DNA of 64,000 bases from Salinispira sp. (GTDB taxonomy: Bacteria > Spirochaetota > Spirochaetia > DSM-27196 > Salinispiraceae). Location: contig OZ271918.1 of NCBI GenBank assembly GCA_965602015.1, positions 128,001-192,000 of the forward strand, given 5' to 3'. Each line of letters opens with the position of its first letter. Position 1 is the first letter of the stretch. Made by a program: the position numbers and the translations under genes. Shown here piece after piece: positions 23,662 to 27,951 of this stretch. Under the pieces are notes generated by a model. It was given only the letters and a program-made list of their open reading frames with translations. It did not search any database and was not told the origin of the DNA.

Positions 23662-24678
23662 ATGAAAGACAACATCCCAGGGGAAATCCTGGATTCAATA
23701 GATGCATCAACCCGACTCCCTTATGGCGTGAGTAGATATTACCGATCACTCGCAACCAGTGAAAATCCTGAGACAGATCCTATCGCCGCCCAGTATATGC
23801 CCCGTGAAGCCGAGAAGTATCTCGCTCCCGGCGAGAGCTCCGACCCCCTGTCCGACGACAGGTATTCAGTAGCGCCCAGGGTGATACACCATTACAAAGA
23901 TCGCATACTGGTTTTGGTAAACGATCGCTGCGCAACCTACTGCCGGCATTGTTTCAGAAGGCACTTCACCGGGAACTCCACCGGCAGAATAACACCGGCG
24001 GAACTGGCCGCCGCAGCTGAGTATATTAAGCAAACCCCGGAAGTTCAGGAGGTACTGCTTAGCGGCGGTGATCCTCTCATGCTGTCAGATGAAGAGCTTG
24101 CGGAGATAATCAAAACTCTCCGTGATGCCGCGGGCAAGAGAGCGATAATGTTCCGATTGGCGACGAGAATGCCTGTGGTTCTGCCATCCCGAATCACCCA
24201 TGGCCTGATAGACCGAATAAAAGAAGCCAGTAGGGGAATGCTCTGGGTTGTTACCCACGCCAATCATCCGCAGGAACTGACGGTGCAATTCGAACAGGCC
24301 ACTGCCCGATTCATTGACAACGGGATTCCGGTGCTTAATCAGGCTGTTCTATTAAAAGGAGTAAATGATTCCCCCGACACCCTCGAGACACTCTTTCGGA
24401 GGCTGATTCAGCTGCGGGTCAAACCCTACTACCTTTTTCAGGGAGATCTGGCCTCGGGAACCCGACACTTTCGGACCAGTATTGATCGGGGACTACAGAT
24501 AATGGATGAACTTCGAAAACGCCTATCGGGAATTGCAATGCCGAGTTATGCCCTCGATCTTCCCGACGGCGGCGGCAAAGTTATCCTTGAAGAACATCGT
24601 ATAGTGAAGCGCAGCCCGGAGGGTTACCATATAAGGGGGAATGACGGGCGAACATATTTCTATTCCCATACAGAGTAG
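23662..24678 (+). CDS. KamA family radical SAM enzyme (lysine 2,3-aminomutase / EpmB-like)
   Basis: CATYCRHCFRR, LSGGDPL, HANHP, NQAVLLKGVND, GGGK. Confidence 0.92.
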   Translation: MKDNIPGEILDSIDASTRLPYGVSRYYRSLATSENPETDPIAAQYMPREAEKYLAPGESSDPLSDDRYSVAPRVIHHYKDRILVLVNDRCATYCRHCFRRHFTGNSTGRITPAELAAAAEYIKQTPEVQEVLLSGGDPLMLSDEELAEIIKTLRDAAGKRAIMFRLATRMPVVLPSRITHGLIDRIKEASRGMLWVVTHANHPQELTVQFEQATARFIDNGIPVLNQAVLLKGVNDSPDTLETLFRRLIQLRVKPYYLFQGDLASGTRHFRTSIDRGLQIMDELRKRLSGIAMPSYALDLPDGGGKVILEEHRIVKRSPEGYHIRGNDGRTYFYSHTE

Positions 24679-24731
24679 TGAAGCGTGTTGCAAAACCCCC
24701 CGAATCCAGTAGACTACACAGGGGAGGGCCA

Positions 24732-25349
24732 ATGACATCAGACGATCGCAGCTCTGAGAAGAAGTACAAAAATCTGGGAGGATATTTTCTCATATCCGAA
24801 GCGGAGCTGCAGGACCCCAACTTCCAATTCACCGTCGTACTCATCGTTAATCATGACGATTCGGGAGCCCTCGGTCTGGTAATTAACAGGCCATCAAATA
24901 GCACTCTCGGAGATGTTTTTCCCGAGCAATTCTCAGAGCACAGCGCCTCGCATATACCGCTCTTCGTCGGAGGACCGGTACAGCAGGAGTACATATTCCT
25001 TGTCCAGCAAGGACTTCCGGAAAGCTACCGCAGTGACGGTGCAATCAGAATTAAGGACAACATATACTTCGAACCGGATGTCCGGCCCGTTCTAAACTTC
25101 ATAAGCGAACGGTGGGATGACCTCCCGTATCACCAACGACCGAGCTTGCGCTTTTTCGCAGGGTACTCCGGCTGGGCTCCGGAGCAGCTGGAGCAGGAGC
25201 TACATCTCAAAGCCTGGGTAACCCATCCATCAAGCGGAGATATTATCTTCAATGACAACCCGGAAGAGGGCTGGAGAAAAGCTCTCAAGAAAAAGGGCGG
25301 GATTTATTGGGTAATGGGTGAAACCGGCTCTAAACCGTCCTTGAATTGA
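24732..25349 (+). CDS. YqgE/AlgH family protein (DUF179)
   Basis: DPNFQFTV, GALGLVINRP, GGPV, GYSGWAPEQLEQE. Confidence 0.93.
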   Translation: MTSDDRSSEKKYKNLGGYFLISEAELQDPNFQFTVVLIVNHDDSGALGLVINRPSNSTLGDVFPEQFSEHSASHIPLFVGGPVQQEYIFLVQQGLPESYRSDGAIRIKDNIYFEPDVRPVLNFISERWDDLPYHQRPSLRFFAGYSGWAPEQLEQELHLKAWVTHPSSGDIIFNDNPEEGWRKALKKKGGIYWVMGETGSKPSLN

Positions 25350-26602
25350 AAGTGCCCCCAAAACAGCTGATCGAATCAACATAACTCTTTTGCCAGTAGT
25401 CTTCTATGACACGATTCCCGCTCATAGGAGATTACCATGGCATTTCACCCCCGTTTCTGTCCGTACTCGGACTGCTCTCAGCATCATCGCGACAAAGCAT
25501 CAAGCCGGTGCTGGTTTGTCCGAAACGGCCACTATCACTGCCGCCGCCTCGGTTCTTCCCAGCGCTATCGCTGTAAGCATTGCCGTCGCTACTTCTGCGA
25601 AAGCTCGTTTCACCTCGATTATCGCACACATCATCGCCTCGATTACCGGCGCATCTTTTCTTCGATCAATTCGGCCTCCGGTATCCGCGACATTGCCCGG
25701 GAGTTTTATGTCACCGACAAGGTCATTCTCAATCGGCTGAGCCGCCTGTCCCGTCAGGCGATCGCTGCCATGGCCGAGTTATTGAACGATCATACAATCG
25801 ATGAGGATAATGCCGTTGATGGGTTTGAAAGCTTTGTGTACAGCCAATACTGGCCGAACAACTTCACCCTCGCGGTGGGTTCCGACAGCCAGGTTGTCTA
25901 TGCGTGCGACTATGCGCAGATGCGGCGAAAAGGGCGGATGACTCCCGCACAAAAGCGCCGGCGCGATGAGCTCAATCGCCGGTATCCTATTGCAGGGGGA
26001 CAAATTGCGCGATCTTTCCGTGATGTGATAAACACCATTCTTCCCCGGTGGAAGGCCTATTCATCGAAGAAGCCATGCTATCTCTTGAGCGATGAAAAAC
26101 TCGAATACCGCCGTGAGCTGTTCGCTCATCGGGACTGGGCGGCGTTGGAAAATGCAGGGCGGGTGATCCATCACCGAACCTCATCGAGGGTGGTCAGGAC
26201 CACTGAAAACCCCCTGTTTCCGGTGAATTACCTGGACCGGGAGATACGAAAGGATCAATCCTGTCATGTCCGCCAGAGCGTGCAGTGGTCAAAATCGGTG
26301 AACAACAGCATGGAGCGGATGATGATTTACATCGCTTATCATAACCTGCTCAAGCCGTATCGGATAAACGGACGTAACGATATCAGCCATGGTGAGGTTG
26401 CGGGGTTTGACCGAAGGCGGGTACTCACGTTGGTAAAACGGATGTTTACACAGCGGGCCTTCGTTCATCATCTGGTGCTGGATATCAGTCAATGGAAGAC
26501 CTGGCATCGGATCTGGAAGACACCGGTGAGTGCGCTGAAGATCGATCTTCCAGATTATGCGGTGGCCTGAGGAGCGGGAAATCAGCTGTTTTGGGGGCAC
26601 TT
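25350..26602 (+). mobile_element. Insertion sequence, IS1-like single ORF, 22-bp perfect terminal inverted repeats
   Basis: AAGTGCCCCCAAAACAGCTGAT (25350-25371) / ATCAGCTGTTTTGGGGGCACTT (26581-26602) bracket a transposase ORF. Confidence 0.9.
25437..26570 (+). CDS. Transposase, IS1/IS1595-like (Zn ribbon + HTH + DDE-like core)
   Basis: CPxxxC...G...QRYRCKHCRRYF Zn ribbon, GIRDIAREF HTH, VDGFESF, LSDEK, RxSVQWSKS. Confidence 0.85.
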   Translation: MAFHPRFCPYSDCSQHHRDKASSRCWFVRNGHYHCRRLGSSQRYRCKHCRRYFCESSFHLDYRTHHRLDYRRIFSSINSASGIRDIAREFYVTDKVILNRLSRLSRQAIAAMAELLNDHTIDEDNAVDGFESFVYSQYWPNNFTLAVGSDSQVVYACDYAQMRRKGRMTPAQKRRRDELNRRYPIAGGQIARSFRDVINTILPRWKAYSSKKPCYLLSDEKLEYRRELFAHRDWAALENAGRVIHHRTSSRVVRTTENPLFPVNYLDREIRKDQSCHVRQSVQWSKSVNNSMERMMIYIAYHNLLKPYRINGRNDISHGEVAGFDRRRVLTLVKRMFTQRAFVHHLVLDISQWKTWHRIWKTPVSALKIDLPDYAVA

Positions 26603-26605
26603 CAT

Positions 26606-26642
26606 AAAAACCACCCTTGAAGAGGAGACTGCTTCAAGGGTG
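26606..26642 (-). terminator. Intrinsic terminator of the candidate sRNA
   Basis: Minus strand CACCCTTGAAG-CAGTCTCCT-CTTCAAGGGTG-GTTTTT. Confidence 0.75.
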
Positions 26643-26748
26643 ATTGGGGGAAGTCGCTGGAGGCTAGCGACATAACTTTTTTACACGCTATGGTTACCAT
26701 AGCGGCAGCTGGGCAAAAGGGGGATGCGGTGGAGGATGCCCATACTGC
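26606..26748 (-). ncRNA. Candidate sigma54-dependent small RNA with C-rich loops
   Basis: Consensus -24/-12 promoter places +1 at the first base of stem 1; four hairpins; the last is an 11-bp stem followed by GUUUUU; no credible ORF. Confidence 0.7.
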
Positions 26749-26758
26749 ACTTATATAA

Positions 26759-26774
26759 TGCAAAAGCCGTGCCA
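26759..26774 (-). promoter_or_regulatory. sigma54 (RpoN) -24/-12 promoter
   Basis: Minus strand TGGCACGGCTTTTGCA, an exact match to TGGCACG-N4-TTGCW. Confidence 0.8.
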
Positions 26775-26943
26775 TCTACAAATTTTAAGAATTTACATGA
26801 ATTAGGGTGTGTATGACGAGCTGAGCATGCTTCCGGATAGATAACGCTATGCAATTTGGATAACTGTATGCTAAAAACATTATATTTTGCATACCCGATG
26901 CTTCTTGTCTTTACGGTGCACAACTGCTACATTCTTCACCCCG

Positions 26944-27951
26944 ATGAGTAACCGACGTATTCTTCAATCAATAATCAACAGGCAGGACGCTGGTCGTACT
27001 CTTCTTGATTGGCTTGTTTCTCGTTTTCGGTATCTCGACGTAGAGCAATGGACTGCTGAGATTCGCGAGGGTCGTGTAAGGGTAAATGGTCGCCGGAGCG
27101 ATGGAGGTCATGAGCTTCAGTCTGGTGACTGTGTTATTTTCGAGCCTGAAGACCTTCATGAACCGGAAGTGAACAAGGATTACTCTTTTGTTTACCGAGA
27201 CGATGATTTTGCATTGATAAACAAGCCGGCTAATCTTCCCAGTCACCCCGGCGGTATTTATCGGGAGAACAGTCTCTGGTCGCTGCTTGTCGGGAAATAC
27301 CCCACTGCTACTTTGGTTAATCGTCTGGACCGGGAGACCAGCGGCATTATTCTCGTCGCCCTGAGCGATAAGGGACGTAAAGCTCTGGATATTCAGCTTG
27401 GCAATAGTGCGCTGGAGAAGGAGTACCTTGTGCTTGTTCACGGCGATACTCCTGGTCAGTTCCGGGCTGACGGCTGGATCAGCCACGATAATAAAAGCGA
27501 GATCCGGAAGAAGCGAAAGTTTTACCTGAGTTTTCCCGACGGCGCCAAGGCTCAATCCTGCAGCACCGGATTTTTCAAGGTGGCGGGTAACCGCGATCTT
27601 TCTCTTTTACGGGCAACCCTGGGCAGCGGCCGCACTCATCAAATTCGAGCGAGCTTGTTCTCCCTCGGATTTCCCGTGCTGGGTGATAAAATTTACGGGC
27701 TTGATGAATTGCTTTTTATTCGGCTTTCTGAGGGCAGGCTCGATGAGGATGATCTACGCACCTTGGTGTTGAGCCACCAGGCGCTGCATAGTGTGAAACT
27801 GACTATTTCTTTCAAATCACATTCCCCTATTAGGCCAGGGGAAAGTCTGGAGTTTTTTGCCCCCCTTCCTGCAGATTTCGCCGCTGTAGTTAATGAGCGT
27901 CTATCGACTGATTTGCATTCTCTCGACGGAGTTAAAGCGCTTTGGCAGTAA
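26944..27951 (+). CDS. RluA family pseudouridine synthase with S4 domain
   Basis: INKPANLPSHP, VNRLDRETSG, GRTHQIRA, LGDKIYG, QALH. Confidence 0.95.
   Translation: MSNRRILQSIINRQDAGRTLLDWLVSRFRYLDVEQWTAEIREGRVRVNGRRSDGGHELQSGDCVIFEPEDLHEPEVNKDYSFVYRDDDFALINKPANLPSHPGGIYRENSLWSLLVGKYPTATLVNRLDRETSGIILVALSDKGRKALDIQLGNSALEKEYLVLVHGDTPGQFRADGWISHDNKSEIRKKRKFYLSFPDGAKAQSCSTGFFKVAGNRDLSLLRATLGSGRTHQIRASLFSLGFPVLGDKIYGLDELLFIRLSEGRLDEDDLRTLVLSHQALHSVKLTISFKSHSPIRPGESLEFFAPLPADFAAVVNERLSTDLHSLDGVKALWQ

Follow-up and report, generated by a model that had tools for sequence, protein, structure and literature searches.

The window, by which we mean the whole stretch of 64,000 nucleotides analysed, contains what is very probably a genuine and previously uncatalogued RNA gene under sigma-54 control, judging from its sequence features and their retention in a congeneric genome. 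The predicted transcript, 143 nt of the minus strand running from 26748 to 26606, is likely non-coding. We favor, at a probability of roughly 0.6, a reading in which this RNA is a sigma-54-driven, Hfq-independent sRNA that would repress translation through C-rich loops directed at ribosome-binding regions, the foremost predicted target being the message for a sigma-54 activator that carries a receiver domain. As a compact RNA that would act without a chaperone and for which a definite target is predicted, it would offer a direct test of pairing by loop-borne seeds; its narrow range, comprising two species, limits its general importance. Throughout, G000 denotes the source Salinispira genome, G001 a congeneric genome that carries an orthologue of the element, and G002 a complete congeneric genome. 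Features of the locus are collected in Table 1.

Table 1. Predicted RNA gene, its parts and its neighbors, in positions of the window.
Feature	Position	Strand	Remarks
YqgE/AlgH (DUF179) gene	24678..25349	+	convergent neighbor; directly downstream of the RNA in G001
Insertion sequence	25346..26600	+	bounded by terminal inverted repeats; encodes a 377-aa ORF; lies outside the RNA
Predicted non-coding RNA	26606..26748	-	fold z -7.2; orthologue z -5.1; no Rfam family; single copy
Intrinsic terminator	26606..26642	-	11 invariant pairs, GUCUCCU in loop (26631-26623), U-tail
C-rich linker UUCCCCC	26646..26652	-	counterpart in G001, GCAUCCCC, is a third seed copy
Hairpin P3, CCUCC loop	26653..26671	-	CCUCC retained in G001; one pair compensated, from U-A to A-U
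A-rich single-stranded linker	26672..26685	-	UAAAAAAGUU conserved (alignment); plus strand reads as a U-run
Hairpin P2	26686..26704	-	sequence not conserved; another, longer hairpin in G001
Hairpin P1	26705..26748	-	loop 1 = 26738-26717, with two tandem CAUCCYCC seeds
Sigma-54 -24/-12 box	26759..26774	-	exact consensus; spacer altered in G001; rpoN in genome
Upstream block	26848..26897	-	three GCAT/TGCA boxes with a 19-nt period; likely activator site (UAS)
RluA-family pseudouridine synthase gene	26944..27951	+	divergent neighbor; 55% identical in G001

Every component that a sequence-only reading had placed on the minus strand (a promoter box, a transcription start, hairpins with C-rich loops, and a terminator followed by GUUUUU) was recovered at its proposed position. 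Spacing from the -12 element puts +1 at G26748, the first base of P1, and an 11-bp terminator helix (26642-26612) leads directly into GUUUUU at 26611-26606. The minimum free energy of the minus strand (-56.5 kcal/mol; z -7.2) was equalled by none of 200 shuffled sequences, and the plus strand folds less strongly (z -4.1). Most positions of loops 1 and 3, of the linker and of the terminator loop have a computed unpaired probability above 0.8. The sequence-only reading had not recognised the RNA as a known spirochaete family, and the covariance models of Rfam 15 gave no match at the gathering threshold and, at E<=10, just two chance-level matches (E 2.6-6.5) falling far below it; no paralogue was found in G000. 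A simple terminator scan, limited to loops of 8 nt, missed the minus-strand terminator with its 9-nt loop and listed instead a plus-strand site composed of P3 and the U-run that follows it.

G000 encodes rpoN and eight enhancer-binding proteins with full sigma-54 activator domains. It has 11 instances of the strict 16-mer, where five Markov-simulated genomes have one to five each; five of the 11 sit in one repeated palindrome, and the other six precede the RNA or genes. Relaxing the search to at most one mismatch gives 52 boxes, 30 of which fall between genes, compared with an intergenic share of about 12% of the G000 sequence. Among the genes that stand behind such boxes are gltB, amtB, two Hsp20-like genes and two of the sigma-70 family (names from reading translations), and elsewhere in the family the box is likewise followed by genes of these types. 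The proposal of a sigma-54-driven non-coding RNA gene is backed by rpoN and the eight activators, together with box, upstream block and loops that are kept, and stems that change in a compensatory way, in the orthologue described below.

Several observations on sigma-54 boxes elsewhere were made along the way. Imperfect palindromes are repeated between short unrelated ORFs at ~1.72-1.74 Mb and 3.44-3.46 Mb of G000:C1, each holding a false sigma-54 box on both strands; we take them to resemble integron attC sites. The two sigma-70-family genes of G000 (G000:C1 1855752 and 2370323, minus strand) each lie about 22 nt behind a box, an arrangement that also occurs twice in G002 and in G005 and at least once in G001, G003 and G004 (L094, L113, L095, L179, L092, L108). 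What is known of sigma-54 in spirochaetes chiefly concerns the RpoN-RpoS cascade; the boxes ahead of these sigma-factor genes suggest that free-living spirochaetes have a cascade, from RpoN to an alternative sigma factor, like that of Borrelia. In G005 (L018 2828-3659), a box precedes cheY-/cheX-like genes that are divergent from an rluA-like gene, with no RNA at that place.

Upstream of the promoter, an ungapped comparison of G000 with G001 revealed a block identical at 31 of 50 positions, a level reached by none of 2000 shuffles. The block begins 123 nt before the box in both genomes, and its distance to the start of rluA differs between them (47 versus 65 nt). Because its distance is kept to the box and not to rluA, this block is likely a binding site for an activator, as predicted from sequence. 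The pattern was not found before other boxes, and a search for a plus-strand promoter just upstream of the element gave no match. Two other sigma-54 boxes are preceded, in both genomes and as judged by eye, by a TGTATA-N6-T(A/G)(T/C)ACA-like palindrome (G000 upstream of 1855752 and 3282930; L156 and L196), likely the site of a different activator. One activator, G000:3464377, which is present in G000 and G001 and is not among the eight of G002, was considered as the driver of the RNA and set aside, the promoters neighboring it being, by eye, without GCAT boxes.

The orthologue in G001 is syntenic, lying between the same two flanking genes with no insertion sequence, and would encode an RNA of ~155-160 nt with a fold z of -5.1. 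Loop 1 is identical in the two genomes at 22 of 22 nt and the terminator hairpin at 30 of 31, with tails of U5 in G000 and U9 in G001; loop 3 also retains its CCUCC, and the A6 linker persists. The background divergence is such that RluA is 55% identical and fourfold sites agree at 31 of 91 positions. P1 begins at +1 in G000 and at +2 in G001. All 25 named base pairs form in both sequences, with four double-sided changes and one that is one-sided; three of the compensatory changes and the one-sided change fall among the eight counted pairs of P1, and slid controls yielded none. Between these two species, then, the stems covary and the loops are fixed, as read from the aligned sequences; a shuffle control for covariation gave 30 of 500, a statistically weak result since two sequences cannot go below ~6%.

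Among the genomes searched, the RNA is confined to two of the three that represent the genus. The syntenic slot between yqgE and rluA is empty in G002 and G006. BLAST searches of 61 genomes and a box-plus-UCCUCC pattern applied to 99 genomes each returned G001 as the only convincing match. A model built from the two sequences, scored on at most 29 candidates per genome in 99 genomes of the order and at most 19 in 151 of the phylum, added only weak matches without the box, the model itself being weak and such that divergent homologues may escape it. Two pattern scans of GTDB returned two and six stretches, respectively, G001 being present in each and the remainder unrelated; all 33 metagenomic matches to a 19-mer of loop 1 were without the box and other parts of the element; and none of 44 strict boxes in five genomes of the family had a similar RNA behind it. 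The conservation anticipated among relatives holds for G001, where box and loops are kept, and, in the genomes searched, does not extend across the Spirochaetaceae. Because G001 is nearer to G000 than G002 is, in rluA and in most activator proteins, the simplest reading of these sequences is that the RNA was gained on the common branch of G000 and G001.

In G000, the U-tail of the RNA is abutted by the end of an insertion sequence that is missing from the same place in G001. G000 has 11 further copies of this element (12 in total) at 95-97% identity, and its 377-aa ORF has no Pfam match and a weak IS1-type match below the cut-off. The notion that the RNA is part of the mobile element was rejected, as the copies stop at the U-tail.

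Among candidate RNA-binding partners, neither Hfq (PF17209; the control was positive in 5 of 14) nor ProQ was found in G000, which is 99.7% complete. KhpA/B-family genes are present, as is csrA, with a FliW-like gene beside it (from reading its translation), FliW being the usual CsrA antagonist in such bacteria. Borrelia is reported to be without Hfq and nevertheless to have multi-target sRNAs (PMC13734083) with G/C-rich seeds, which pair without that protein.

We predicted targets over 3134 G000 genes, with start codons from a purpose-written gene caller, using a score for contiguous helices that deducts the cost of opening each of the two partners and, additionally, a gapped model; comparison with G001 encompassed 692 orthologue pairs from 126 of ~780 contigs (1.26 of ~3.4 Mb). 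Of the 42 best predicted sites, 33 lie at -15 to -6 relative to start codons. A 7-nt seed match at -22 to +3 occurs in 386 of the 3134 genes, whereas two control windows gave 77 and 54 such genes; a 9-nt match occurs in 16. Such enrichment at start regions is expected of any anti-SD sequence and is no proof of multi-target repression; seed-matching 8-mers were conserved no better (5 of 28) than other SD-like 8-mers (313 of 1817), and no further standout conserved target emerged among the 692 orthologue pairs. The idea of a multi-target repressor, put forward in the sequence-only reading, is backed in so far as the seeds match start regions. That the RNA acts by pairing at start regions is, on the strength of its sequence, probable.

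Individual candidates fared variously. The gene patB, named in the sequence-only reading as one candidate target, ranks 445th of 3134, and some of the 11 nt that were to pair with it are taken up by stem P1; the G001 contigs compared did not include its orthologue. Internal complements in sucB (16 nt) and ptsH (14 nt) stood out, with only 0.6% of shuffles doing as well, and were rejected, being broken in G001; the sucB site is identical in G001 and G002, which points to a coincidence of D-A-V-E codons. A site associated with an Rrp2-like activator (GUGGAGGA), kept in both genomes and with a 7-nt match in G002 as well, was discarded as lying inside the last codons of the upstream gene. A scpB-like gene, top in the gapped model, was likewise dropped, its site probably overlapping upstream coding sequence.

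The leading candidate is the message coding for a REC-AAA+-HTH activator of sigma-54 (G000:C1:582586-584031), one of the eight encoded in G000. In the contiguous model its leader ranks 35th of 3134 in G000 and second of 693 in G001 (-13.2 kcal/mol), through the same loop-1 seed in both genomes, and none of the 692 orthologue pairs has a rank product as low; in the gapped model the corresponding ranks are 202 of 3134 and 8 of 693, with 10 of the 692 pairs scoring better. This activator had been spotted in the G000 list before the test in G001, in which seven activator pairs were tested, and the corrected significance is ~0.01 for the contiguous model and ~0.1 for the gapped one. The motif GGGG(A/G)UG occurs in start regions of 17 of 3134 genes in G000 and 6 of 692 in G001, and is shared by none of the 692 pairs. 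We further inspected 21 orthologues of the activator from genomes without detected RNA, namely that of G002 and 20 hand-picked across the order from 88 genomes with a match; none had the site or reached the G000 score of -10.3 kcal/mol.

A sigma-70-like site with 17-nt spacing precedes this gene in G000, G001 and G002, and the leaders predicted from it measure 11, 22 and 0 nt, respectively, so that the activator of G002, the closest outgroup and a genome in which the RNA was not found, would be leaderless. Many of the other orthologues look leaderless or short-leadered, several of the promoter predictions being poor. In the predicted G000 leader (GGGGAUGUGAC), nine bases pair with loop 1. In that of G001, two G-runs face both tandem seeds, giving ~16 bp and -27.6 kcal/mol, from which opening costs of 11.1 and 1.8 are still to be deducted, although topology may limit such pairing inside a closed loop. 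The pattern represents a single evolutionary event, and common ancestry accounts for one of the two sites in G001. The G-run can also serve as an ordinary SD; with RNA and leader both placed on one and the same branch, the leader may be no more than an SD of recent origin. We regard this mRNA as a direct target only tentatively, the sequence evidence leaving slightly more doubt than belief. This activator is represented in 88 of 99 genomes of the order, often without an SD and leaderless in appearance (orthologues L312-L332).

In the mechanism we envisage, an enhancer-binding protein situated ~75-125 nt upstream of the box would fire the promoter, and the RNA would fold at once, presenting loop 1 without a chaperone or with the help of KhpA/B. 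Nine contiguous bases of loop 1 would then pair with the activator leader (GGGGAUGUG in G000), covering leader and start codon and blocking entry of the 30S subunit. Loop 3, the linker and the terminator loop would cover other SD variants (GGAGG, GGGGA and GAGGAGA), so that further targets are likely. Were the same activator to drive the RNA, the outcome would be a negative feedback loop of the Qrr-LuxO type, a possibility that we consider doubtful; the activator is also encoded in G002, where the RNA was not found. Doubtful, too, is the broader proposal that a new sRNA gene between yqgE and rluA, together with the gain of a leader on a leaderless activator, created a recent feedback circuit in two sister species without Hfq; the leader would then be almost wholly a binding site for the RNA, duplicated in one species to accommodate both seeds. 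If RNA and leader were indeed gained together, they would provide a rare dated case of a new sRNA acquiring its target by way of a leader on a leaderless gene; if the feedback were true, a Qrr-LuxO-like loop would have evolved independently in spirochaetes.

Other explanations were weighed against repression at ribosome-binding regions with the activator as foremost target. The RNA might be a broad anti-SD dampener with no privileged target, which upon sigma-54 activation would mildly lower the translation of many mRNAs and would match the activator incidentally. Four C-rich patches, each fitting a different SD word, the 386 start regions with 7-nt matches and the want of another standout target among 692 pairs are all consistent with this, and NfeR1 has redundant anti-SD loops for several mRNAs (PMC10746234). 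We nonetheless consider it unlikely: the 22-nt loop also holds constant some letters outside the SD complement (CACCGCAU), for which a generic decoy would have no use, matches of 9 nt are restricted to 16 genes, and the pattern in the activator leader tracks the RNA. Sigma-54-driven RNAs may also serve as protein decoys, as do GlmY and CrcZ, and here the CAUCC/C-rich loops or the A-rich linker could titrate an RNA-binding protein such as KhpA or KhpB. Repeated single-stranded motifs on variable stems, the conserved A6 linker, and the presence of KhpA/B-family genes in a genome where Hfq and ProQ were not found suit such a role, which is nevertheless quite unlikely in view of loops that are unequal in size and sequence and that complement start regions with positional enrichment, no protein partner being indicated.

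A functional plus strand, acting as a GGA-loop CsrA sponge or as a 3' extension of the DUF179 transcript that ends at P3 and its U-run, would fit the folding of that strand (z -4.1), the GGA in its loops, the terminator-like site in mid-element and the presence of csrA. We find it very improbable: box, upstream block and U-tail face the minus way and are conserved, the insertion sequence separates DUF179 from the element in G000, and csrA has a FliW-like gene beside it. The minus strand is favored because of its U-tail and because a U-G/C-G change in P1 would be tolerated on that strand only. Just as improbable is a regulator of flagellin, in which a seed (CAUCCUCC) would invade the hairpin that holds the SD of a flagellin transcript (G000:2059808, GGAGGAUG) beside CsrA. 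The 8-nt match is perfect and the same in G000 and G001, and the SD lies within a hairpin whose loop would be the toehold; the leader occurs, however, in 29 of 99 genomes of the order, 27 of them without detected RNA, so that its conservation is otherwise explained, and the site ranks 357th of 3134. Least credible is a gene for a small peptide starting with AUG/GUG at +6, of 20 codons in G000 and 40 in G001 with ILHRIPL in common. Its start codon is at the same place in both genomes, yet the third positions of the shared block are all identical though nearby synonymous sites are saturated; lengths and remaining residues differ, there is no SD, and the start codon falls within P1.

Reverting to the preferred reading, RNAs that direct C-rich sequence at the SD are in themselves familiar: RoxS, LhrC and 6C RNA have C-rich seeds that pair with the SD, and LhrC has a CU-rich terminator loop. 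To our knowledge, neither these nor RsaE, FsrA, RNAIII and the csRNAs are sigma-54-driven. Qrr RNAs, for their part, contain several hairpins ending in a terminator. By analogy, the RNA described here likely works in the manner of NfeR1/cuckoo or RsaE and belongs to none of these groups; it is placed outside the NfeR1/cuckoo, Qrr and RsaE-type families because it has no CCUCCUCCC modules, no detected Hfq and no Rfam score. The NfeR1/alpha-r14/cuckoo RNAs of Alphaproteobacteria are similarly of ~120-150 nt, with several hairpins, variable compensating stems and invariant anti-SD loops (PMC4615179, PMC10746234), and the compensatory stems and invariant anti-SD loops recur here, in two sequences only. 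NfeR1 is Hfq-independent, and among its silenced mRNAs is that of ntrBC, which encodes a sigma-54 activator system (PMC10746234). The cuckoo family is defined by two to four adjacent hairpins with the loop motif CCUCCUCCC (PMC4615179), whereas that motif is absent from both sequences here and their loops are not identical modules; moreover, the promoter of NfeR1 is described as lacking a sigma-54 signature and as repressed by NtrC, the promoter here is of the sigma-54 type, and the phylum differs.

Qrr1-5 of Vibrio, under LuxO, have a sigma-54 promoter fired by a receiver-domain activator and repress the mRNA of that activator (PMC2632942); repression of an activator mRNA is predicted for the present RNA as well, and its sequence provides a sigma-54 box with a conserved upstream block, in a genome with rpoN and activators. 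Qrr RNAs need Hfq (PMC2632942), which was not found here, and our RNA is single copy with no sequence or Rfam match to them. Among Firmicutes, RsaE, FsrA, RNAIII and csRNA1-5 pair with the SD through C-rich single-stranded seeds, RsaE being Hfq-independent and the csRNAs pairing with SD and start codon (PMC4152353); unpaired C-rich seeds of the UCCC type are likewise present here. RsaE/RoxS, LhrC, 6C and csRNA differ in seeds, layout and phylum, and none appeared at E<=10 in Rfam. CJnc230 (FlmE) of Campylobacter jejuni is RpoN-dependent and represses at the ribosome-binding site with an anti-SD seed, but it arises by processing of the flgE transcript, and its single CCUU seed is linear and flanked by a stem on each side (PMC11187230); the present RNA, by contrast, has a gene to itself, a box of its own and four patches. 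SR0906, SR1138 and SR0554 of Borrelia burgdorferi are from an Hfq-less spirochaete and have G/C-rich seeds and many targets; they differ in that RpoN figures only in a reference title within the text consulted (PMC13734083), and our model had no convincing match in 151 genomes of the phylum. Anti-SD loops acting without a chaperone thus have precedent (PMC10746234, PMC4152353, PMC11187230). In the abstracts and passages of text consulted, no RpoN-driven stand-alone sRNA was found for spirochaetes, none was described for the genus, and no account of the present RNA appeared; supplementary sRNA lists could hold spirochaete relatives that went unrecognised.

Two observations concern loci apart from the RNA itself. 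In a Planctomycetota MAG (L020 1501-1558), a sigma-54 box is followed by a leader with five CAUCC repeats and a signal-peptide-like ORF, an arrangement that is non-homologous to the present element. Flagellin leaders of G000 (G000:C1 1397688, 2059808 and 2061149) form hairpins with AAGGA/AUGGA loops, which we presume to be CsrA-site-like; one flagellin SD hairpin is nearly invariant in 29 of 99 genomes of the order, with a fliW-like gene and csrA lying 7 kb away.
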